64,000 bases of DNA. Source: Octopus sinensis (taxonomy: Eukaryota). This document shows positions 5,208-55,550 of the stretch, piece by piece (positions within the stretch are counted from its first letter, which is position 1; every line of letters begins with the position of its first letter). Made by a program: the position numbers and the translations under genes. Location of the stretch: NCBI RefSeq assembly GCF_006345805.1, contig NC_043003.1, forward strand, positions 1,612,001-1,676,000, given 5' to 3'. Below the pieces are notes generated by a model. The model was given only the letters and a program-made list of their open reading frames with translations. It had not been told where the DNA came from and ran no database searches.

Positions 5208-5268
5208 TGTGTATAAATGTATATATATATATGCATGTATATATATATGTGTATATATATATATATAT
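4655..5268. repeat. (TA)n, (CA)n and (TACA)n microsatellite cluster
   Basis: Direct inspection of simple repeats. Confidence 0.95.
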
Positions 5269-5646
5269 GAATAAATAAACGGAGTTTAACGCAGGTGTAA
5301 ATCAAATATTTTTACTTTCGACACATGTTTCGAAAATTCCACTGATACTATTCAAAAGAATAAATAGTATAAACAATGCAATCTTCTCCTCAGCTACTTA
5401 TGACGTTATATCATATAACGTTTTTTTAAACAATATTAATAGCGTTCTGTCTATCGCTATACAAATCCATCATTTTTTGCTAAAATGTCTTATTGACGAG
5501 TCTCGCTTTTTCACTTTCCTGAGAAGATTGCATTGTTTATACCATTTATTCTTTTGAATAGTATCAGTGGAATTTTCGAAACATGTGTCGAAAGTAAAAA
5601 TATTTGATTTACACCTGCGTTAAACTCCATTTATTTATTCATATAG
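5263..5646. mobile_element. PLE-type inverted terminal remnant: ~130-bp inverted arms, each with a hammerhead motif
   Basis: 5263-5393 is the near-exact reverse complement of 5519-5646. Both arms hold helix II plus GAAAC-ATGT-GTC. The right arm has helix I (actttc/gaaagt) but a 3-nt core deletion. The left arm has the intact CTGAGGA core but no matching helix I strand. Confidence 0.7.
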
Positions 5647-5702
5647 ATTTATGTTATGGCTAAAAATAGACTTTTAGGTGGCTGCTGCTGCTGCTTTCTG
5701 TG

Positions 5703-5741
5703 TATATATAGAGTGAATTCTGGTTTACTACTACAGTCAAG
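5703..5741 (+). promoter_or_regulatory. TATA-like box plus CAGT initiator-like motif just upstream of ATG 5742
   Basis: TATATATA 5703-5710, CAGT 5734-5737, ATG 5742. The spacing is typical of a core promoter, but TA runs are common in this genome. Confidence 0.3.
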
Positions 5742-5846
5742 ATGCCTCACCATCCACGATACACCAGATTCTGCTTTACACTTAACTATGACGATGTCGA
5801 CGTTTATAGACTTCAGCATATGCAGCATATTCGTTATATGGTTTTT
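5742..5846 (+). pseudogene. Truncated CRESS-DNA-virus-like Rep N-terminus (candidate endogenous viral element)
   Basis: MPHHPRYTRFCFTLNY-(13 aa)-IRYMVF resembles the RCR motif I region of circovirus-like Rep (RWxFTLNN...YhhhGxE). Similarity stops before motif II (xHxQG), where the sequence turns into low-complexity AATTTT repeats. Confidence 0.45.
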
Positions 5847-5934
5847 CGAAAATTTTCACTGAAAATTCAACCGAAAAATTTTCACCAACAATTTTTAGAA
5901 AATTTTTGCCGAAAATTTTACCAAAATTTTACGC

Positions 5935-8900
5935 GAAAGAGATCAAAGATGGTGCAAACATAAATCAAAGTGGGTGCCGATATAGATGAAAGAGGGTGCC
6001 GACAGATATCGAAGATGCTACCGACAGAGATCAAAGACGGTAACAAAAGAGATCAAAGAGGGTGCCGACATAGATCAAAGAGTCTGCCGACGGTGATCAA
6101 AGGCGGTACCGACAGAGATCAAAGAGGTTCCCGAAAGAGATCAAAGGAGAGTGTTGACAGATATCAAAGTGGGTGCCGACAGAGATCAAAGATGGTGCCG
6201 ACAGAGATCAAAGAGGGTGCCGACAGAGATCAAAGACGGTCCCGAAAGAGATCAAAGATGAGTGTTGAGAGATAGATATTAAAGAGGAGTGTCGACAGAG
6301 ATCTAAGATGCTGCCGACATAGATCAAAGAGGGTAGTGACAGAGATCAAAGACGGTGCCGAAAAAGATCAAAAAGGGTGCCGAAAGATGTCAAAGAGCCT
6401 GCCGACAGAAATCAGAGAGGGTGACGACAGAGATCAAAGACGGTGCCGAAAGAGTTCAAAGACGGTCCCGAAAGAGATCATAGAGGGTGCCGTCAGAGAT
6501 CAAAGTGCGTGCCGACAGAGATTAGAGATCAAAGAGGGTGCCGACAGAGATCAAAGAGGGTACCGATAGAGATCAAAGATGAGTGCCGACAGAAATCAAG
6601 GAGGAGTACCGACAGAGATCTAAGAGGAGTATGCCGACAGAGATCAACGAGGAGTGCCGACAGATGTCAAAGAGGAGTATCGACAGAGTACCGACAGTGA
6701 TTAAAGAGGAATGCCGACAGAGATCCGAGAGGAGTACCGACAGAGACCAAACATGAATGCCGACAGAGATCAAAGTGTAATGCCGACAGAGATTAAAGAG
6801 GAGTTCCAACAGAGATCAAAGAGGAGTACCGACAGAGATCAAAGAGGAGTACCGACAAAGATCAAAGAGGAATGCCGACATAGATCAAAGAGGAGTACCG
6901 ACGGAGATCAAAGAGGAGTACCGACAGAGATCAAAGTGGAATGCCGACAGAGATCAAAGAGGAATACCGATAGAGATCAAAGATGAGTGGGAACAGAGAT
7001 CAAAGAGGAGTACCGAAAGAGATCAAAGAGGAATGCCGACATAATTCAAAGAGGGATGCCGACAGTGATCAAAGAGGAATACTGACGGAGATCAAAGAGG
7101 GATGTCGACAGAGATCAAAGAGGAGTACCAACAGAGATCAAAGAGGGTGCCGACAGAAATCAAAGAGGAGTATCGACAGAGTACCGACATAGATCAAAAA
7201 GGAATGCCGACACAGATCAAAGAGGAGTACCGACAGAGATCAAAGAGGAGTGCCGACAGAAATCAAAGAGGAGTGCCGACAGAGATCAAAGAGGAGTGCC
7301 GACTGAGATCAAAGAGGAGTACCGACATAGATCAAAGATGAATGCCGAGATACATCAAAGAGGACTGCCAACATAGATCAAAGAGGAATGCCGACAGAGA
7401 TCAAAGAGGAATGCCGACAGAGAACAAAGAGGAGTACCGAAGGAGATCAAAGAGGAATGCCGACATAGATCAAAGAGGAATACCGACGGAGATCAAAGAG
7501 GAATGCCGACATAGATCAAAAAGGAATGTCGACAGAGATCAAAGGGGAATGCCGACAGAAATCAGAGGAGTACCAGCAGAGATCAAAGAGGAATGCCGAC
7601 AGAAATCAGAGGAGTAACGAAAGAGATCAAAGAGGAATGCCGACAGAAATCAGAGGAGTAACGAAAGAGATCAAAGAGGAATGCCGACATAGTTCAAAGA
7701 GGAATACTGACGGAGATCAAAGAGGGATGTCGACAGAGATCAAAGAGGAGTGCCGACAGAGATAAAAAAGGAGTGCCGACTGAGATCAAAGAGGAGTACC
7801 GACATAGATCAAAGATGAATGCTGACAGAGATCAAAGAGGAGTAACGAAAGAGATCAAAGATGAATGCCAACAGTGATCAAAGAGGAGTACCAACAGAGA
7901 TCAAAGAGGGGCGCCGAGAGAAATCAAAGAGGAGTATCGACAGAGATCAAAGAGGATTGCCGACATAGATCAAAGAGGAGTGTCGACAGATGTCAAAGAG
8001 GTGTATTGACAGAGTACCGACATAGATCAAAGAGGAATGCTGACAGAGATCAAAGAGGTGTGACGACAGAGATCAAAGAGGAATGCCGACAGAGATCAAA
8101 GAGGAATGCCGACAGAGATCAAAGAGGAGAACCAACAGAGATCAAAGAGGAATGCCGACAGAGATCAAAGAGGAATGCCGACAGAGATCAAAGAGGAATG
8201 CCGACAGAGATTAAAGAGGAATGCCGACAAAGAACAAAAAGGAATGCCGATATAGATCAAAGAGGAGTACCGACAGTGATCAGAGAGGAATGTCGACTGA
8301 GATCAAAGATGAATGCCGAGAGAAATCAAAGAGTTGTGCCGACAGAGACCAAAGAGGAGTGCCGACAGATGACAAAGAGGAGTATCGACAGAGAACACAC
8401 ATAGATCAAAGAGGAACACCGACATAGGTCAAAGAGGAATGCCAACAAAGATCAAAGAGGAATGCCGACAGAGATCAAAGAGGAATGCCGACAGAGATCA
8501 AAGAGGAGTGCCGACAGAGATCAAAGAGGAGTACCGACAGAGATCAAAGAGGAATGCCGACAGAAATCAGAGGAGTACCGACAGAGATCAAAGAGGAATG
8601 CCGACCGAGATCAAAGAGGAGTACCGAAAGAGATCAAAGAGGTGTTCTGACAGATATCAAAGAGGAATGCCGACAGAGATCAAAGAGGAGTGCCGACAGA
8701 GATCAAAGAGGAGTGCCGACGGAGATCAAAGAGGAGTATCGACATAAATCAAAGAGGAATGCCGAAAGAGATCAAAGAGGAATGCTGGCAGATATCAAAG
8801 AGGAGTACCGATAGAGATCAAAGATGAGTACCGACATAGATCAAAGAGGAATGCCGACAGATATCAAAGAGGAGTACCGATAGAGATCAAAGAGGAATGC

Positions 8901-11900
8901 CGACCGAAATCAAAGAGGAGTACCACTTGAGATCAAAGAGGAGGGCCGACAAAGATCAAAGAGGAGTACCGACATAGATCAAAGAGGAATGCCGACAGAG
9001 ATCAAAGAGGAATGCCGACAGAGATCAAAGAGGAATGCCGACAGAGATCAAAGAGGAATGCCGACAGAGATCAAAGAGGAGTGCCGACAGAGATCAAAGA
9101 GGAATGCCGACAGATATCAAAGGAGTACCGACAGAGATCAAAGAGGAATGCCGACCGAGATCAAAGAGGAGTACCGAAAGAGATCAAAGAGGTGTTCTGA
9201 CAGATATCAAAGAGGAATGCCGACAGAATCAAAGAGGAGTGCCGACAGAGATCAAAGAGGAGTGCCGACGGAGATCAAAGAGGAGTACCGACATAAATCA
9301 AAGAGGAATGCCGAAAGAGATCAAAGAGGAATGCCGACAGATATCAAAGAGGAGTACCGATAGAGATCAAAGAGGAGTACCACTTGAGATCAAAGAGGTG
9401 GGCCGACAAAGATCAAAGAGGAGTACCGACAGAGATCAAAGAGGAATGCCGACCGAGATCAAAGAGGTGTACAAACAGAAATCAAAGAGGAATGCCGACA
9501 GATATCAAAGAGGAATGCCGACAGAGATCAAAGAGGAATGCTGACAGAGATCAAAGAGGAGTACCGACAGAGATCAAAGAGGAGTGTCGACAGATGTCTA
9601 AGAGGAGTATCGACAGGGCACCGACAGAGATTAAAGAGGAATGCCGACAGAGATCATAGAGAATACCGACAGAGATCAAAGAGGGGTACCGACCAGGATC
9701 AAAGAGGAATGCCGACAGAGATCAAAGAGGAGTGCCGACAGAGATCAAAGAGAGGTACCGACAGATATCAAAAAGGAATGCCGACTGAAAACAAAGAGGA
9801 ATGCCGACAGAGATCAAAGAGGAATGCCGACAGAGATCAAAGAGGAATGCCGACAGAGATCAAACAGGGGTACCGACAGAGATCAAAGAGTAATGCCGAC
9901 AGAGATAAAAGAGGAATGCCGACAGAGATCAAAGAGGAATGCCGACAGAGATCAAAGAGGAATGCCGACAAAGATCAAAGAGGAGTACTAACAGAGATCA
10001 AACAGGGGTACCGACAGAGATCAAAGAGGAATGCCGACAGAGATCAAAGAGGAATGCCGACATAGATCAAAGAGGAGTACTAACAGAGATCAAAGAGGAA
10101 TGCCGACTGAGATCAAAGAGAGGTACCGACAGATATCAAAGAGGAATGCCGACTGAAAACAAAGAGGAATGCCGACAGAGATCAAAGAGGAATGCCGACA
10201 GAGATCAAACAGGGGTACCGACAGAGATCAAAGAGGAATGCCGACATAGATCAAAGAGGAGTACCGACAGAGATCAAAGAGGAATGCCGACAGAGATCAA
10301 AGAGGAATGCCGACAAAGATCAAAGAGGAGTACCGACAAAGATCAAAACGGAGTACCGACAGATATCAAAGAGGAATGCCGACAGAGATCAAAGAGGAGT
10401 ACCGACAGAGATCAAAGAGGAGTATCGACAAAGATCAAAGCGGAGTACCGACAGAGATCAAAGAGGAATGTCGACAGAAATCAAAGAGGAGTACCGACAG
10501 AGATCAAAGAGGAATGCCGACAGAGATCAAAGAGGAATGTCGACAGAGATCAAAGAGTGTGCCGACAGAGATCAAAGAGGAGTGTTGACATACATCAAAG
10601 AGGATGCTGACAGAGATCAAAGACGGTGCCAAAAGAGATCAAAGATGGTGTCGAAAGAGATCAAAGAGGGTGTCGACAGAGATCAAAGAGTGTGCCGACA
10701 GGGATCAAAGAACGAGCTTAAAGAATGATGACAGTGATCAAAGTGGAGAGTTAACAGAGATCAAAAAGGGCGCCGACAGAGGTCAAATAGCCTGCCGATA
10801 GAGATCAAAGAGCGTCCCGACATAGATCAAAGATGGTGCTTACAGAGATCAAAGAGGGTGCCGAAAGAGATCAAAGACGGTGCCGAAAGTGATCAAAGAC
10901 GGTGCCGAAAGAGATCAAAGAGTGTGCCGACAGATCAAATATGGTGCCGACAGAGATCAAAGAGGGTGCCGACAAAGATCAAAGAGGCTGCCGACAGAGA
11001 GTAAAGAGGGAGCCAACAGAGATAAAAGAGCCTGTCGACAGAGATCAAAGGCGGTGCCGAAAGAGATCAAAGATGGTGCCGAAAGAGATCAAGGAGCCAG
11101 CCGACGGTGATCAAAGACGGTACCGACAGAGATCAAAGAGGTTCCCGAAAGAGATCAAAAAGGAGTATTGACAGAGATCAAATTGGGCGCCGAGAGAGAT
11201 CAAAGAGGGTGCTGACATAGATCAAAGATGATACCGACAGAGATTAAAGGGGACTGCCGACAGAGATCAAAGAGCGTGCCGACGGAGATCAAAGACGGTG
11301 TCGACATATATCAAAGATGGTGCCGACAGAGATCAAAGATGGTACCGACAGAGATTAAAGGGGACTGCCGACAGAGATCAAAGAGCGTGCCGACATACAT
11401 CAAAGGGGGCGCCGACAGAGGTCAAAGAGCCGGTCGAAAGAGGGTGCAGAAAGAGATCAAAGAGAATGCCGACAAAGATCAAAGAGCGGGTCAACAGAGA
11501 TTAAGAATGGGCTCCGATAGAGGTCAAAGAGCCTGCCGAGAGATATCAAAGGGGGTGTTGACAGAGATCAAAGAGCGTGCCGGCAGAGATCACAAAGGAG
11601 TGTCGACAGAGATCAAATAGCCTGCCGATAGAGATCAAAGAGAGTTTTTGTAAAATCTCAGAAAATAATTAAAAATTCACATTTTTTATCAAATTATTTT
11701 GAGATCAAAGAGTGTGCCGACAAAGATCAATGAGTGTGCCGACAAAGATCAAAGAGGGTGCCGACAAAGATTAAAGATGGTGCGGGCAGGGATAAAGAGC
11801 CTGTCGACAGAGATGAAAGACGGTGCCGACATTGATCAAGGATGGTGCCGACAGAGATCAAAGAGGGTGCAGACAGAGATCAAAGAGTGTGCCGAAAGAT

Positions 11901-14145
11901 ATAAAAGAGAGTGCTTACAGAGATCAAAGAGAGTGCTTACAGAGATCAAAGGCGGTGCCGACATAGATGAAAGACGATGCCGACAGAGATCAAAGAGTGC
12001 TTACAGAGATCAAAGGCGGTGCCAAAAGAGATCAAAGAGGTTACCGACAGAGATGAAAGAGGGTGCCGAAAGAGATCAAAGAGGGTGCCGACAGAGATCA
12101 AAGAGTGTGCCGAAAGAGATAAAAGAGAGTGCTTACAGAGATCAAAGGCGGTGCCGAAAGAGATCAAAGGCGGTGCCGAAAGAGATCAAAGAGGTTGCCG
12201 ACAGAGATCAAAGAGTGTGTCGACAGAGATCAAAGGCGGTGCCGAAAGAGATCAAAGACGGTGCCGACAGAGAACAAAGATGGTGCTAACAGAGATCAAA
12301 GAGTGTGCTGACAGAGATCAACGAGGGGGCCGACAGAGATCAATGAGGGTGTCGAAAGACATCAAAGAGCGAGCTGACAAAGATTAAAGAGGAGAGCAAA
12401 CAGAGATCAAAGAGGGAGCTGACAGAAATCAAAGAGGGTGCTGACAGAGATCAAAGAGGGTGCTGACAGAGTTGAAAGAGCGAGCGGACAGAGATCAAAG
12501 AGGGTGCCGACAGAGATCAAAGAGCGAGCTGACAAAGATCAAAGAGGAGAGCCGACAGAAATCAAAGAGCGTGTCGACAGAGATCAACGAGGGTGCTGAC
12601 AGAGATCAAAGAGGGTGCCGATAGAGGTCAAAGACGGTGCCAAAAGAGATCAAAGAGGATGCCGACTGAGATCAAAGAGGGTGCCGATAGAGATGAAAGA
12701 TGGTGCTGACAGAGATCAAAGAGGATGCCGACATATATCAAAGAGGGTGCCGATAGAGATCAAAGAGGGTGCTGACATAGATCAAAGTGGGTGCGACAGA
12801 TATCAAAGTGGGTGCTGACAGAGATCAAAGAGGATGCTGACATAGATCAAAGTGGGTGCCGACAGATATCAAAGTGGGTGCCGATAGAGATCAAAGAGGG
12901 TGCCGATAGAGATCAAAGAGGGTGCTGACATAGATCAAGGTGGGTGCCGACAGATATCAAAGTGGGTGCCGACAGAGATCAAAGAGCGTGTCGACAGAGA
13001 TTGAAGAGGAGTGTCGACAGAGATCAGAGATGGTCGCTAAAGAGATCAAAGATGGTGCCGACAGATCAAATATGTTGCCGACAGAGATCGAATAGGGTGT
13101 CGACAGAGTTCAAGGAACCTGCCGACCGAGATCAAAGAGGATGCCCACAGAGATCAAAGAGGGTGCCGTCAGAGATCAAAGAGTGAGCCGAAAGAGATCA
13201 AAGATGGTACCGACAGATGGCAAAGATGGCGCCGACATAGATCAAAGAGGGTGCCGACAATCAAAGAGCGGACCGACAAAAATCAAAGAGGGCGTCAACA
13301 GAGATCAAAGAGGGTACCGACATTGATCAAAGAGGGTGCCGACAATCAAAGAGCGGACCGACAAAAATCAAAGAGGGTGTCAACAGAGATCAAAGAGGGT
13401 ACCGACAGAGATCAAAGAGGGTGTCGACAGAGGTCAAAGACGGTGCCAAAAGAGATCAAAGAGGATGCCGACAGAGATCAAAGAGGGTGCCGACAGAGAT
13501 CAAAGATGGTGCCGACAGAGATCAAAGAGTGAGCCGATAGAGATCAAAGACGGTACCTACAGATATCAAAGATGGCGCCGACAGAGATCAAAGAGGGTGC
13601 AGACATATATCAAAGATGGTGCCGACAGAGATCAAAGACGGTGCCGAAAGAGATCAAAGAGGGTGATGACAGAGATGAAAGTAGGTGCCGACAGAGATCA
13701 AAGAGGGGGACGACAGAGATCAAAGAGGCTGTCGACAGAGATCATACATGGTGTCGACAGAGATCAAAGGGGTGCCGATAGAGATAAAGGAGTCTGTCGA
13801 CAGACATCAAGGATGTTACCGACAGGGATAAAAGAGGTTCCTGAAAGAGATCAAAGAGGAGTTTTGACATATATCAAAGATGGTGCCGACAAGGATCAAA
13901 GCGGGAGCCGACAGAAATCAAAGACGGTGCCGACAGAGATCAAAGAGGGTGCCGACAGAGATCAAAGCGGGTGCTGACAGTGATCAAAGAGGGAGCTGAC
14001 AGCGATCAAAGAGGGTGCCGACAGAGATCAAAGAGCCAGCAAACATAGATCAAAGAGGGTGTCGTAAGATATCAAAGATGGCGCCAACAGAGATCAAAGA
14101 GGGTGCCGATAGAGATCGGAGACGGTGTCGAAAGAGATCAAAGAC
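5935..14145 (+). repeat. 8.2-kb purine-rich minisatellite, 22-bp and 23-bp units (GCCGACAGAGATCAAAGAGG-GT / -AAT/-AGT)
   Basis: Hundreds of tandem units are visible. 22-bp diverged units at ~5935-6570 and ~10560-14145, a more homogeneous 23-bp core at ~6570-10560, and an AT-rich interruption at ~11645-11700. Confidence 0.97.
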
Positions 14146-15684: not shown

Positions 15685-17190
15685 AAATAGTAAAGAGTGA
15701 AAAAACGACAGAAGGCTTAAATGTTAAAAAATATATATATATGCGTCAAAATGTCTGGAGAATATTGGAAAAATTTTTTTCCTCCTTAAAATGACATAAT
15801 TTTATAATTTTTAAAGAAATACCGGTTTCGCAGTTAGCTCTTCAAATTTCTTGTGACTTAATGTTTATTTTTAATAACGTAATCCTTGTATTTTTGCTAC
15901 GGAGAGTTCTAAATAAGGGAAGGTAGTGCGTGATTTCTTCCGGTGTAAGGGAGATAATCGCTTAAAAAATTTTTTTCCTTTAGTGTGAATTTCTCTGTAT
16001 TATTGAGTTCGGATAGTTGAGTCTGGGTTTGTACTTTTCAATGAAGAATGTTTCCTTATTTAGTCTAATTTGTGATGATGATCCGAAAGCACATTGGTAA
16101 AATGGAAAGATTAAAAATTGTGGTTGTAGTTGCTTTGCGCATTTCTCAATGTGCTCACTAAAAGGTATCATTCTATATTCTGGGAATGCAATCTGTTGTC
16201 GATGCAGTGTGCATCTACGTCTGAGTGATAGTCCCGTGGACCCCACGTAGTCTTGGTGGCAGCCCGAGCATTTAATGACATAAATTATGTTTTCAGAGGC
16301 ACAAGTAAAGTTAGATTTGATCTTAAATTTCTGTCCCTCTTTAAAGAAGAATTCTGATCCTTCCAATAGGTTAGGACATGTTGCACAGTTCGATCTACCA
16401 CATTTTTTTATTTTTGCATCCGTAATTTTAGAAGACAATTTTGCCTTTGTGAGAATCTTTTTAAGTGATTTAGGCTGTTTGTAGCTTTTAATGATTTGGT
16501 GTATGTTTAGAATTTCCTTTTCTTCCTTAAAGAGGGACAGAAATTCAAGATCAAATCTAACTGTACTTGTGCCTCTGAAAACATAATTTATGTCATTAAA
16601 TGCTCGGGCTGCCACCAAGACTACGTGGGGTCCACGGGACTATCACTCAGACGTAGATGCACACTGCATCGACAACAGATTGCATTCCCAGAATATAGAA
16701 TGATACCTTTTAGTGAGCACATTGAGAAATGCGCAAAGCAACTACAACCACAATTTTTAATCTTTCCATTTTACCAATGTGCTTTCGGATCATCATCACA
16801 AATTAGACTAAATAAGGAAACATTCTTCATTGAAAAGTACAAACCCAGACTCAACTATCCGAACTCAATAATACAGAGAAATTCACACTAAAGGAAAAAA
16901 ATTTTTTAAGCGATTATCTCCCTTACACCGGAAGAAATCACGCACTACCTTCCCTTATTTAGAACTCTCCGTAGCAAAAATACAAGGATTACGTTATTAA
17001 AAATAAACATTAAGTCACAAGAAATTTGAAGAGCTAACTGCGAAACCGGTATTTCTTTAAAAATTATAAAATTATGTCATTTTAAGGAGGAAAAAAATTT
17101 TTCCAATATTCTCCAGACATTTTGACGCAAATATATATATTTTTTAACATTTAAGCCTTCTGTCGTTTTTTCACTCTTTACTATTTTCTT
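15681..17190. mobile_element. Young PLE insertion as a fold-back: two ~670-bp inverted copies of the GIY-YIG endonuclease 3' end and UTR
   Basis: 15681-16350 is the reverse complement of 16521-17190 with very few mismatches and a 170-bp spacer. ORF 15980-16618(-) has CGRSNCATC, the GIY-YIG-like NIIYVIKCSGCHQDYVGST, R..H and E..FI..YKPRLN. Both flanks are (TA)n. Confidence 0.92.
17019..17057 (+). ncRNA. Minimal hammerhead variant in PLE 3' region (mirror copy 15814-15852, minus strand)
   Basis: aagaaa-t-TTGAAGA-GCtaactGC-GAAAC-CG-GTA-tttctt. Helix III ACCGGT is palindromic, helix II is 2 bp, and the core is non-canonical (C3U plus an extra U). Confidence 0.5.
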
Positions 17191-24124: not shown

Positions 24125-25472
24125 CAGCTTAATCTGTTATTTCTCACTGCTTAATCTGCTTAATCACACAGCTTAATCTGTTATTTCTCACTGCTTAATC
24201 TGCTTAATCACACAGCTTAATCTGTTATTTCTCACTGCTTAATCTGCTTAATCACACAGCTTAATCTGTTATTTCTCACTGCTTAATCTGCTTAATCACA
24301 CAGCTTAATCTGTTATGTCTCACTGCTTAATCTGCTTAATCACACAGCTTAATCTGTTATGTCTCACTGCTTAATCTGCTTAATCACACAGCTTAATCTG
24401 TTATGTCTCACTGCTTAATCTGCTTAATCACACAGCTTAATCTGTTATTTCTCACTGCTTAATCTGCTTAATCACACAGCTTAATCTGTTATGTCTCACT
24501 GCTTAATCTGCTTAATCACACAGCTTAATCTGTTATGTCTCACTGCTTAATCTGCTTAATCACACAGCTTAATCTGTTATGTCTCACTGCTTAATCTGCT
24601 TAATCACACAGCTTAATCTGTTATGTCTCACTGCTTAATCTGCTTAATCACACAGCTTAATCTGTTATGTCTCACAGCTTAATCTGCTTAATCACATAGC
24701 TTAATCTGTTATTTTTCACTGCTTAATCTGCTTAATCACACAGCTTAATCTGTTATGTCTCACTGCTTAATCTGCTTAATCACATAGCTTAATCTGTTAT
24801 GTCTCACTGCTTAATCTGCTTAATCACACAGCTTAATCTGCTATGTCTCACTGCTTAATCTGCTTAATCACACAGCTTAATCTGTTATGTCTCACTGCTT
24901 AATCTGCTTAATCACATAGCTTAATCTGTTATGTCTCACTGCTTAATCTGCTTAATCACACAGCTTAATCTGTTATGTCTCACTGCTTAATCTGCTTAAT
25001 CGCACAGTTTAATCTGTTATGTCTCACTGCTTAATCTGCTTAATCACATAGCTTAATCTGTTATTTCTTACTGCTTAATCTGCTTAATCACACAGCTTAA
25101 TCTGTTATTTCTCACTGCTTAATCTGCTTAATCACATAGCTTAATCTGTTATTTCTCACTGCTTAATCTGCTTAATCACACAGCTTAATCTGTTATGTCT
25201 CACTGCTTAATCTGCTTAATCACATAGCTTAATCTGTTATTTCTTACTGCTTAATCTGCTTAATCACACAGCTTAATCTGTTATTTCTCACTGCTTAATC
25301 TGCTTAATCACATAGCTTAATCTGTTATTTCTCACTGCTTAATCTGCTTAATCACACAGCTTAATCTGTTATGTCTCACTGCTTAATCTGCTTAATCACA
25401 TAGCTTAATCTGTTATTTCTTACTGCTTAATCTGCTTAATCACACAGCTTAATCTGTTATTTCTCACTGCTT
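24125..25472. repeat. 44-bp minisatellite, ~30 copies (GCTTAATCTGTTATKTCTCACT-GCTTAATCTGCTTAATCACAYA)
   Basis: Period 44 measured (24127 to 24171). Each unit is a dimer of two related 22-bp halves. Confidence 0.97.
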
Positions 25473-33483: not shown

Positions 33484-35110
33484 CCCCTTCGGTCATGAAT
33501 GACCATGGGGTTGCACCCAGAAAGTTCCCCTCCGAGGCACAAGTCCAAGCAAGGTTGTTAATGGAAGACCAGCAGTCACCCATGCACACCCATGCTCCAC
33601 TCTCCATGTCATTATATGTACATAGGGTAAAGGGTAAAGACCCCCTTCGGTCATGAATGACCGTGGGGTTGCACCTAGAAAGTTCCCCTCCGAGGCACAA
33701 GTCCAAGCAAGGTTGTTAATGGAAGACCAGCAGTCACCCATGCACACCAACCTCCCATCTCCATGCCATTATATGTACATAGCGTAAAGGGCAAAGACCC
33801 CATTCGGTCATGAATGACCATGGGGTTGCACCTAGAAAGTTCCCCTCCGAGGCACACGTCCAAGCAAGGTTGTTTATGGAAGACCAGCAGTCACCCATGC
33901 ACACCAACCTCCCATCTCCATGCCATTATATGTACATAGGGTAACGGGAAAAGACCCCCGTTGGTCATGAATGACCATGGGGTTGCACCTGGAAAGTTCC
34001 GCTCCAAGGCACACGTCCAAGCAAGGTTGTTTATGGAAGACCAGCAGTCACCCATGGATACCAGCCTCTTCTCTCCATGCCTTTATACGTATATAGGGTA
34101 AAGGGCAAAGATCCCTTTCGGTCATGAATGACCATGGGGTTGCACCCTGAAAGTTCCCCTCCGAGGCACAAGTCCAAGCAAGGTTGTTAATGGAAGACCA
34201 GCAGTCACCCATGGATATCAGCCTCCCCTCTCCATGCCATTATATCTACATAGGGTAAAGGGCAAAGACCCCCGTCGGTCATGAATGACCATGGGGTTGC
34301 ACCTGGAAAGTTCCCCTCCAAGGCACAAGTCCAAGCAGGGTTGTTTATGGAAGACTAGCAGTCACCCATGCACAACAACCTCCCATCTCCATGCCATTAT
34401 ATGTACATAGGGTAAAGGGAAAAGACCCCATTCGGTCATGAATGACCATGGGGTTGCACCTAGAAAGTTCCCCTCCGAGGCAAAAGTCCAAGCAAGGTTG
34501 TTTATGGAAGACTAGCAGTCACCCATGGATACCAGCCTCTTCTCTGCATGCCATTATATGTACATAGGGTAAAGGGCAAAGACCCCCGTCGGTCATGAAT
34601 GACCATGGGGTTGCACCTAGAAAGTTACCCTCCGAGGCAAAAGTCCAAGCAAGGTTGTTAATGGAAGACCAGCAGTCACCCATGGATACCAGCCTCTTCT
34701 CTGCATGCCATTATATGTACATAGGGTAAAGGGCAAAGACCCCCGTCGGTCATGAATGACCATGGGGTTGCACCTAGAAAGTTACCCTCCGAGGCAAAAG
34801 TCCAAGCAAGGTTGTTAATGGAAGACCAGCAGTCACCCATGGATACCAGTCTCTTCTCTCCATGCCATTATATGTACATAGGGTAAAGGGCAAAGACCCC
34901 CGTCGGTCATGAATGACCATGGGGTTGCACCTGGAAAGTTCCCCTCCAAGGCACAAGTCCAAGCAAGGTTGTTTATGGGAGACCAACCTATGCATACCTG
35001 TCTCCCCTTTCGACACCATTACATTTGCATAGGGTAAAGAGTAAGAACCCCTTCGGTCATGAATGACCATAGGAATGCATCTAGGAAGTTACTCTCCGAG
35101 GCACAAGTCC
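33484..35110 (-). repeat. 157-bp tandem array, ~10.4 copies
   Basis: GGTCATGAATGACC recurs at 33491, 33649, 33806, 33963, 34120, 34277, 34434, 34591, 34748, 34905 and 35055. Confidence 0.97.
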
Positions 35111-51744: not shown

Positions 51745-54700
51745 GAAGGTAGGTGTCTTACTTCAAATCTCCCACTTGCACCATAAGCTATTTCGGCACT
51801 CCACATAAGACGTCACCACGATGGCAGCTAAAATCAGGATTGCCAGCGACGTTATCAGACACTTTAATGGTGAGGGCAATGTAGTGGCCTGGATGCATAA
51901 AATCAGGCTTGTGGCGAGATTGCAAGGCATTAGCGATGTGGCGAGCCTTATGGCACTATATTTGGGAACGCATTGACTCTATAAAGAAGGTCTGAGCGAG
52001 AAGATTGAGTGACGTTTGAGAGAGGCTTACACCGAGTGTGAGTATACAGCCTTTGTTAAGCTGGGCACGATTAGATGGACGAGAGAGCAGGTGGAGGTGC
52101 GTAGGCTGGTCACACTGGCTGGGTTTACAGGAGAAGGCCTGGACAGAGCAGCGAGACTGGCATTTGTAAGTGGGTTCCCTGACGATGTAGGGATTCGACT
52201 GCAGCAATTGCCAGGGGGCAAATAGATGGTGCTGAGTGAACGTGTGACTCAAGCCCGTATGTTGACGCGAAAAACTGGATGGCAGTAATGGAGGCGCATA
52301 AAGACAGCCAACAGCCAGAGAAAGACACGAAGAAGTCTACCGTGCAATGACAGCAGCCGTTCTCAGACAGGTGTTTTAAATGTCAGGGGCCGCACATGGT
52401 GAGGGAGTGTATGCAACCGGGGCCTGTCTGCTATCGATGCAGGCAGACAGGGCACATCGCCCATGATTGCGACCAGGGAAACGACCGTGGGGAAGTTGCT
52501 GCCTCTCGAACTTTCCCCACAAATGAGTAGAGGCGCTTTTGGAGACGCCGCCCTTAATTGATGTCGAGGCCAAGGGAAAGACGTTCAAGGCCCTTGTGGA
52601 TACGGGTTGCACGACCACCCTTGTGACTTCAAGGGTGACGAAGAAATGGAATGGGGCAAGTAGCATCCGGGCAGTCGACGGCAGCGAAATCCGTTGCAGA
52701 GGCAGCAGCAAGGTAGAGATAGTGGTGCAAGGTGTGATGCTAAGGCTGCAGGTTATTGTGGTTGAACACATGATAGATGGGGTTGATGTGGTGATGGGGA
52801 TGGATGCCATCGACAGCCTCGGTGGTGTCAGTATTGTAGGAGATGAGGTCATGTTCGGAAGCATGGGGGTGTCGTGCACTGAGTCAGGATAGCCAGAAAG
52901 GGCAGGGCCCCGTGAGGGACTGCACTGGTTACACCATTGAGGACAAGGATTTTCAGGCAGCATTCGATGGTCAGCCGTGAACGATAGAGTGGCGATGGAA
53001 GGACGAGCCCCCGATGCTGAGAAACAGAGTGAGCTGCTACCAGCGAACCCTGAAAGGTCACGCCAGGGTCGAGTTTGAAGACGAGGTAGAGAGGTGGATC
53101 AGGGAAGGAGTCCTTGTCCCGTGAGAGGAGGAGGTAGTGGGCAGAGTGCTACCTCTGATGGCTGTGGTGCAGCTGATGAAGGGATAAGTCAGACCGACAC
53201 TGGACTTTAGAGAGCTAAATGAGCATATATCGTGCCACACAGGAGGTGAGGTGACGGACGTTTGTGGCGAGACATTACGTGTGTGGAGATTGTCGACTTG
53301 AAATCGGTATACTTGCAGCTCCATGTGAGCAACAAACTGTGGCGATATCAGCTTGTGCAGTACAAGGGCCAGACGTACTGTTTAAGCAGACTGGATTTCG
53401 GACTGAATTCTGCTCCAAAGATCATGTTGGCGGTGCTTAAGTCTGTACTAGGAAAAGAGAACAAGAAAGGCCACCAGTTCTTACATAGACGACATTTTGG
53501 TGGACGAAACTGTAGTGCCAGCCAACGAGGTAGTGAGACATCTGGAGAAGTTCGAACTGATTGCGAAGCCACCAGAGTCGATGGAAGGGGAAGCTGCACT
53601 GGGGCTGAAGCTGCAAAGAGATAGATCAGGTGTGTTGGTGTTCCGGAGAGGAAATGAAATCCCAGAGCTAAGTTCTAGCGTCAGCAGGAGAGAGCTGTTC
53701 TCGGTGTGTGGGAAGCTGGTCGGTCACTACCAAATCGCTGGATGGCTTCGCACAGCATGCATTTACACCAAGAGATGAGCGGTAGGGGAGAGCTGGGGTG
53801 ACAAGGTGGGAGAAGGGACGGTGGCGATGATGCAGGAAATCCTAGAGAGGATGAGAGCGGAAGACCCGGTCAGAGGGAACTGGTATGTGCCCAAGATGGA
53901 ATGCGGGGCCGTCTGGTGTGATACTAGCAGTATAACGACAGGGGTTGTGTTGGAGATTGAAGGTGCTGAGGTGGAGGATGTGACCTGGCTTCAGAAAGCA
54001 GATGACTTCAACTACATCAATGTCGCCGAATTAGACATGGTGCTGAAGGCGGTGAACTTGGCTCTGAAATGGGGGCTGTGCTCAATCAAAATCTGGACAG
54101 ATTCGGCCACTGTGCTTGGCTGGGTAGGATCGATGATCACCAGTGAGAGGAGAGTTCGGATGAAAGGTGCCGCAGAGATGTTGGTGAAGCGCCATCTAGG
54201 GAGTTCTAGGAGAATTGATTGCCGAGTTCGGACTGAAACTGAACATGATTTTTGTGCCTTCAGAGAGAAACAGGGCAGACAAACTGATCTGAGTGAAAAG
54301 AGTGTGGATGGAGGAGCCGGAGGAGGCACAGAAAGGAAAAGCTGCAGCATGTCAGTTGGATGACTCCGAACTGAAGAGACTGCACGCTACGCATCACTTG
54401 GGTGTGGACAGGACCCTGTATCTGGCGAAAAAGATTGATACTGATATTACTTGGAGAAGCATCCGGAAAGTGGTCGGGAGCAGCGACAGGTGTCAGTCCA
54501 TTGACCCTGCTCCATGAGCAAGGAAACCTTTTGGTGGAGCACAACTGGAAGAGGCTAGCTGTGGATGTGACGCACTACCATCATGGTCGACTGCTGACCA
54601 TTTGGAGGGAGTTGAGGACGGGCATTACTGACGAGATTGCGCAGATTTTGAACGGGATATTTTTAGAGAAGGGTCCCATGGAAGAACTGCTAATGGACAA

Positions 54701-55550
54701 TGGGGCAGAGTTTCGTTCGGAAGCATTGAGGAATATGCTTGGACAGTGGAAAGTGCGTTGCTTGTTCAGAGCAGTGTATAGGCCAAACAGTAACGGAATC
54801 ATAGAGCGGTACCATCAGACAGTCAAGGCCATAGCGGAAAGAGCGCACAATTCGCCACTGGAAGCAGTTTTCTGGTACAACATGTCTCTCTGATCCGGAA
54901 AAGCTGAAGAATCTGTGCTACACAGAGTGCTATTTAAATACGAATGGAGGCATCCAAGTAAAGCACCGGAGTGTCACAAGGAAGAGAAGGGACCCGCCTG
55001 CGTGAAAATAGGGGAGGAAGTCTGGGTTAAGTCACAGAAGGCACGCTGTACGTCTCAATGGAGTAGAAGAACGGTGACAGCGGTCAATTCCAGAAACAAC
55101 GTCTCCGTGGATGGAATGTTGTGACACATCTTGGACCTTCGCAGGATTGTCGCTTAGTTGGATGACGATTGTGGAGAGGAGGAGAACGAGGTGCTTAGCC
55201 TGAGAAGATCTCAACGTGCAAGGCGCCCTCCCGGTTTGATGGTGGACTTCGACATGGAGTAGAGAGAATGTGATCTTTAAGGTCAGGGTGGCGTGTGGGA
55301 TGACATCAGCAGCTGGGGAGCTGACCGGTAGAGGAAGGGCGCAAGAGTGATGTGCATGCAGGCAGGGGATGATTGGGCCTTTTCGATCGGGGTAGCAGAC
55401 AGTGCTGGACGCGTGAGCGCTTCAACAAGGTGAGGGAAAAGCAGCTATTTTTAGCGTTTGGGTTGGGCCACATGGAAAGGTGTGTTACCACCGGAGAGGT
55501 CTGCATTGACGAAGAGAAGGTAGGTGTCTTACTTCAAATCTCCCGCATGC
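51745..55550 (+). mobile_element. Ty3/gypsy LTR retrotransposon, near-complete internal region, frameshifted and with stops
   Basis: gag ATG at 51821, two zinc knuckles (CFKC..H...EC; CYRC...GH....C), protease LVDTG, RT DLKSVYLQ/FGLNSAP/YIDD, RNase H WCDTS, integrase H..H/D..DNG..E, in PR-RT-RH-IN order. 5' LTR remnant 51745-51805 ends CCACA. 3' LTR starts TGTGG at 55294 after a G-rich tract. Confidence 0.93.

Follow-up and report, generated by a model that had tools for sequence, protein, structure and literature searches.

The Nicotiana elements GRD2/3/5/53 are described as a degenerate, truncated rep gene with an adjoining fragment of intergenic DNA, arranged in multiple direct repeats and neutral after integration, and the endogenous yam element EGV1 is likewise presented in the accessible part of the same source as repeated truncated rep plus intergenic DNA (PMC5014472). 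In the Drosophila simulans clade, the reported excerpts on Rsp-like and 1.688 satellites describe a rare join that yielded a hybrid repeat hitchhiking to new loci with a common junction; extrachromosomal circular DNA (eccDNA) or interlocus copying is proposed as the means of spread (10.1101/846238). Among invertebrates, Rep-derived fossils are recorded from bivalves and gastropods in the available text of PMC6069186, which contains no mention of octopuses or cephalopods, and up to ~60 Rep copies are recorded from the salmon louse and Varroa, where multiple invasions or segmental duplication are given as the explanation (PMC3198968, as far as excerpted); the supplementary tables of either article could list an octopus element. 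In the openly accessible main texts that were searched, no report of octopus CRESS elements or of a satellite carrying a CRESS module was found, and PMC6011040 holds no viral content.

The window analyzed here is a stretch of 64,000 nucleotides of the Octopus sinensis genome (contig NC_043003.1, positions 1,612,001 to 1,676,000, forward strand). In it, a viral promoter with the start of a Rep gene (35 codons) is fused to a 37-bp minisatellite, which probably captured this viral piece once, the piece then spreading as a neutral passenger.

Layout and viral identity of the window segment

The virus-bearing module spans ~200 bp (5645–5846, forward strand) and recurs genome-wide within a composite satellite. 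Its 5′ part (5645–5698, +) consists of two short imperfect AT-rich repeats followed by GCT repeats and shows no significant likeness to the viral upstream regions or the 37-bp unit. Next come the TATA region (5699–5722, +), the 9-mer TACTACTAC (5726–5734, +), which is replaced by TAATATTAC or TAGTATTAC without a hairpin in a derived subfamily elsewhere, and codons 1–35 of a CRESS-virus Rep with motif I (5742–5846, +), which end before G-x-E and motif II. Judged by sequence comparison, the viral part extends over 5699–5846 and is a CRESS-DNA-virus remnant made up of the TATA region and the first 35 Rep codons. An earlier note on this DNA had listed a TATA at 5703, a CAGT at 5734, an ATG at 5742, and the peptide MPHHPRYTRFCFTLNY-x13-IRYMVF, all of which are found at these positions; the module start at 5645 and its multicopy nature lay beyond what that note could see.

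The ~90 bp described there as AATTTT repeats correspond to a short remnant of a AAAATTTT-type minisatellite with a 37-bp unit and a 12/13-bp subunit (5842–5938, +), which is the carrier repeat. The Rep frame continues through these AT-rich repeats to a stop at 5961–5963, for a total of 73 aa. The minisatellite remnant is followed by a 22/23-bp tandem array (5934–14144, +), which belongs to an independent dispersed minisatellite family that is adjacent and not virus-derived. On the other side, a MITE-like element with 132-nt inverted arms (5257–5652, no strand assigned) abuts the module. An assembly artifact at the array junction, a concern raised at the outset, is ruled out because a short-read contig of run X11 (5875–5990), which may stem from the same sample as the assembly, bridges position 5934 with 0 differences. 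Elsewhere in the window lie a 219-aa frame with a weak GIY-YIG match (15980–16639, −; E 0.004), likely a Penelope-like element remnant, an LTR retrotransposon remnant with RNase H and integrase-like frames, both weak matches (53779–54893, +), and two young tandem arrays with units of 44 bp (24125–25472, 96% match) and 157 bp (33484–35110, 91% match).

The peptide carries a sequence that we take to be HUH motif I, the motif names being applied from general knowledge of Rep proteins; it reads FCFTLNY in the window. The corresponding pattern, which was written after the motif had been seen, has a single match in the window and none in 100 shuffles. A comparison with the Viral_Rep profile (PF02407), which the earlier note had proposed, agrees in kind and falls short in score: Viral_Rep is the sole Pfam family matched (E 0.01), and the 16.5 bits obtained by the window peptide alone, with 27 profile positions present, remain below the curated cut-off of 26 bits. 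The viral assignment is carried by the 272-aa Rep of the longer element L021 in the same genome, with which the peptide shares 22 of 35 residues (BLASTP, E 7e-15), and by the TATA region, which is homologous to that of L021 (20 of 24 positions identical, a value reached by 0 of 500 shuffles). The segment can be aligned with 14 Reps. Hence, the supposition of an endogenized ssDNA-virus fragment with its own promoter holds, the TATA region being itself viral.

Over the 35 codons, a module copy differs from L021 by pS 0.75 and pN 0.21 and from L022 by pS 0.77 and pN 0.18. The low pN relative to pS toward L021 points to purifying selection while the lineages were viruses, and the divergence itself indicates a donor distinct from both L021 and L022. 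The absence of motifs II and III and of a nonanucleotide stem-loop, as read from the window, was likewise correct: motif II, motif III, and the SF3 helicase are missing from every module copy found by tblastn, all of which stop at approximately residue 36–44, with two longer rows running into satellite sequence, and the stem-loop is absent from the window. The module is chromosomal, inherited, and common to several hosts, as seen from its presence at 36 loci and in contigs of sequencing runs that bear four organism labels.

Longer endogenous CRESS elements

The same genome harbors the longer CRESS elements L021, L022, and L025. The nearest named relatives of the viral elements are Octopus predicted proteins, in agreement with the mollusc-like genome assumed from the letters. 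L021 (215–1990; G000:C3, 47.24 Mb) encodes a C-terminally cut Rep of 272 aa that scores 82.5 bits against Viral_Rep (PF02407) and matches eight solved Rep sequences; downstream of it, an arginine-rich, capsid-like frame of 234 aa lies on the same strand. Its upstream end forms a perfect palindrome with 27-bp arms (z −12.8). The capsid-like protein has 2 matches only; a 76%-identical relative (P0088) sits on a 2467-nt contig labeled as a bacterium, which is likely a mislabeled small circular virus. In L022 (1456–1870; G000:C14, 52.36 Mb), Rep residues 4–111 and their TATA region are embedded in a Merlin/IS1595-like transposase, whose halves are assigned by sub-threshold Pfam matches on both sides of the Rep piece. 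L025 (G000:C16, 4.80 Mb) is an ambisense element with a capsid-like frame, from which the middle of Rep is deleted; it contains the origin region twice, one copy with a TAGTATTAC stem-loop. Capsid-bearing CRESS elements thus exist in the octopus genome, and their Rep/Cap layout is same-strand in L021 and ambisense in L025. The same virus lineage has left further pieces, with the helicase only or the capsid only, at L027, L028, L029, L096, and L098, and the viral contigs add one distant Rep locus.

The L021 Rep is 41% identical to that of Dragonfly larvae associated circular virus-10 over 96% coverage (E 3.7e-55). In a quick protein tree of 54 of 84 Reps, those from the octopus fall together in one clade (SH-aLRT 100) next to the Dragonfly larvae associated circular virus-10-type Reps, and L021 stands apart from most PF00910-bearing Reps, the tree being without any named circovirus. 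PF00910 itself is not found in the L021 Rep, nor among the 43 candidates of a profile search of the genome. The term circovirus-like used in the earlier note is probably too narrow, since the longer endogenous Rep groups with the Dragonfly larvae associated circular virus-10-type Reps.

The composite satellite and its viral passenger

The module is part of a composite satellite DNA dispersed over 36 or more loci. A first DNA search of the 2.72-Gb genome with the module gave at least 66 matches with 40 of 172 candidates scored, and of the 138 rows of a tblastn search with the L021 Rep, 126 cover nothing but an N-terminal piece. The 42 fetched stretches, which represent at least 36 loci on 11 large contigs and five scaffolds, contain at least 252 module matches. 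Most of these share a 3′ end: 201 of the 252 stop at one point just before G-x-E, and the 37-bp unit follows directly 3′ in 198 of the 201. The 37-bp unit occurs in 41 of the 42 stretches and a 32-bp minisatellite in 29. Array units are arranged head-to-tail in kilobase-size arrays (0.3 to over 13 kb) with arbitrary ends at many loci. The 37-bp unit is composed of self-complementary words of A/T runs, which may explain the strand flips within arrays, seen as mixed orientations inside 23 of 58 stretches. Across the four organism labels whose contigs contain the module, tandem joints are found in at least two besides the first, namely in runs of organisms C and E. At two loci, the 37-bp satellite abuts a different minisatellite, of AACCGG type in L130 (6060–7780) and of 11-bp type in L121 (2945–3688).

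The array borders bear on the question of mobility. Mollusc satellites often ride on Helitron/Helentron-type elements. The arrays could thus be internal repeats of a nonautonomous element of this kind that captured the virus piece, and three small groups of arrays do share flanks (window/L049/L118, L058/L131/L140, and L061/L121/L145); Helitron-like features are, moreover, proposed for Nicotiana GRD3 in the accessible text of PMC5014472. However, these groups are small and each is different, which fits duplications, and the 127 flanks yield neither a common flank nor fixed termini, nor the conserved 5′ and 3′ termini with a terminal hairpin of Helitrons/Helentrons, with array starts and ends falling at arbitrary units. 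A Helitron carrier is highly improbable on these grounds. As candidate target-site duplications, repeats of at least 7 nt lie at both edges of 11 of 30 arrays in an uncontrolled count, nearly all of them satellite words.

The 130 near-full copies, with a mean identity of 0.878, form one clade relative to L021 and L022, in a copy tree whose bootstrap had not settled; a single capture is favored by this clade, by the prevalence of N-terminal-only pieces, and by the common break point that leads into the satellite. Coding constraint on the copies is rejected: pN/pS among them is 0.945 (from nonindependent pairs, and addressing selection on protein, with selection on RNA outside this test), and the ATG and an open frame without a stop are kept in 67 of 130. 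Third codon positions are no more variable than first and second positions. Motif I reads FTLNN in 77 copies and has the FTLNY form of the window in four, and the TATA is kept in 93.

Most likely, the satellite existed first and took up the viral piece once, as module-free arrays, capture of rDNA, and units unlike viral intergenic DNA argue. Of 20 loci selected through the exact 32-bp pattern, 15 carry no module, a picture that module loss from some arrays would also give. A 5′ETS/18S rDNA piece lies inside a 37/32-bp array at L145 (4935–5170), where Rfam by itself did not call the short 18S part, which was identified by aligning it with L161. In defective CRESS genomes, rearrangements close to the origin are frequent, the module always enters the 37-bp unit, and the donor virus is absent from the sequences compared; the whole 37/32-bp satellite might on this account be an integrated defective concatemer with expanded intergenic repeats. 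Yet neither unit shows significant likeness to the intergenic regions of L021, L022, or L025, neither has a match in the viral contigs (0 matches), and no further viral pieces are present in 17 array inserts, so that a viral origin of the satellite itself is very unlikely.

For the favored course, in which an existing satellite captured the module, the following steps are conceivable. A piece of viral DNA would have been joined into a 37/32-bp array during germ-line repair, possibly through microhomology with the A/T-run palindromes of the satellite; a donor-length viral copy is absent from the 138 tblastn rows, themselves a lower bound, and a microhomology join is therefore not directly readable. 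Unequal exchange or template switching could then have built up tandem copies of the hybrid unit, and random-ended array pieces may have seeded new loci via extrachromosomal circles or interlocus copying, by analogy with Rsp-like/1.688. The window would hold a small later derivative, composed of the MITE, one module, a satellite remnant, and the 22/23-bp array, that was copied to at least two other places.

The earlier note had tied the viral fragment to the 8.2-kb array and speculated that the array arose from, or travels with, a rolling-circle element. The first link shifts to the short AT-rich 37-bp repeat, which is the actual carrier, and the second is largely contradicted. The 22/23-bp array is a repeat family independent of the viral module, with at least 497 matches (40 of 292 candidates) and an inner order of 23-bp units in the middle and 22-bp units at both ends. 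Of 19 loci selected through the array, 18 have no module in the 10-kb stretch (one end of L110 not being covered), and the sole exception, L118, was known beforehand. The co-occurrence in 4 of 42 module-bearing stretches is above random placement, and at L149 the array is joined to the 37-bp satellite, which could speak for an array derived from or moving with the viral element. But three of the four stretches (window, L049, and L118) share the MITE of 5257–5652 at an identical junction, in common only among them, and therefore descend from one composite; the junctions of the array differ among loci, L149 lacks the module, and the array shows no similarity to viral intergenic regions. There is next to no likelihood of a viral derivation of this array. 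Likeness between the 32-bp and the 22-bp unit is no more than marginal (16 of 500 shuffles), a 5′ETS/18S rDNA piece lies within the 22-bp array at L105 (5675–6865), and the MITE, whose contig cover in runs X11 and X12 is far deeper than that of the module, is apparently of very high copy number.

Some copies carry an origin-type nonamer. Between the TATA and the ATG, where the window has TACTACTAC, TAATATTAC is found in 18 of the 130 near-full copies and TAGTATTAC in two further module matches; in total, ~22 of 130 copies bear such a nonamer or a one-letter variant. This site is the position of the origin stem-loop in L025, and the subfamily is younger (identity 0.902 vs 0.883) and present at ~10 loci. 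The module, or this subfamily, might hence be a selfish mini-replicon for which an infecting CRESS virus supplies the Rep that nicks and amplifies it in trans. However, the subfamily is nested in the copy tree (22 rows, 97/72, bootstrap not settled), is more distant from the outgroups (identity to L021 0.639 vs 0.666), and is reached via an intermediate 9-mer, whereas L021 and L022 are similar to the TACTACTAC form. The nonamer forms no hairpin, with z values of 0.19 and −0.03 vs −3.98 for L025 and a mean folding energy of −0.6 vs −13.3 kcal/mol, and array ends do not fall at the 9-mer. An ancestral origin hairpin in the module is rejected by the nested position of the subfamily and the absent hairpin. 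A functional origin is less probable than a coincidence that arose stepwise in AT-rich DNA, because the subfamily is nested, younger, further from the outgroups, and without a hairpin; a mini-replicon is quite unlikely.

None of the runs with module contigs is recorded as RNA, but in four that are presumed to be RNA the module is covered by contigs, which give neither strand nor level, so that it may not be silent. In three such runs (X1, X3, and X10), a common junction equals the sequence flanking L125, a copy without the TATA; this points to a host transcript that reads through and to an L125 insertion common to organism labels A and B. The arrays could serve as a host-kept antiviral store, in which transcription from the viral promoter through inverted and tandem copies yields small RNAs that target the 5′ end of Rep in octopus CRESS viruses. 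Retention of the TATA, strand flips that could yield double-stranded RNA, the module contigs in guessed-RNA runs (12 in X2), and repeated invasion by the same virus lineage would fit such a store, as would the siRNAs known for tandem yam EGV1 from the accessible text of PMC5014472. On the other hand, the TATA region is not better conserved than the coding part (π 0.105 vs 0.110), the copies have diverged by 12% from each other and by ~33% from the nearest longer virus, the X1/X3/X10 transcript matches a copy lacking the TATA, and module-free arrays are commoner than module-bearing ones. An antiviral store is thus unlikely. A rather improbable extension would combine both ideas: the satellite would use the viral promoter and Rep start as small-RNA memory, while the nonamer subfamily lets viral Rep copy it, as in an emerging virus satellite.

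Significance and comparison with known systems

Neutral passage on a satellite provides a route by which a scrap of a nonretroviral virus could reach hundreds of germ-line copies without a transposase, namely capture by a mobile minisatellite. It also calls for caution, as a high number of endogenous viral elements may go back to a single capture and not to many invasions. In otherwise unalignable arrays, the module is a tag of unique sequence that allows a tree of the spread of arrays between chromosomes. Together with the module, the longer Rep- and capsid-bearing elements indicate that octopuses are hosts to a CRESS lineage not yet described. Should small RNAs or nicking by Rep be demonstrated, a link would exist from satellite DNA to antiviral memory or to the way virus satellites arise.

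Compared with other invertebrate CRESS/circoviral Rep fossils, the octopus module stands out by more than 250 copies that probably go back to one capture and were amplified by a satellite. Dragonfly larvae associated circular virus-10 is the nearest named virus and represents a neighboring clade, whereas the octopus elements form a clade of their own. Nicotiana GRD, as described in the accessible text of PMC5014472, resembles the module in combining a truncated rep with an upstream intergenic piece in direct repeats that are neutral. In that account, GRD units are wholly viral, reside on one or two chromosomes, and contain a v-ori; in contrast, the octopus module is a 200-bp piece without an origin hairpin, set in a nonviral minisatellite at 36 loci or more on 11 large contigs and five scaffolds of an animal host. 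In Rsp-like/1.688, the passenger is another satellite, whereas in the octopus it is viral DNA (and rDNA in another array). By analogy, the octopus case would work like a GRD that is carried by a hitchhiking satellite of the Rsp-like style.
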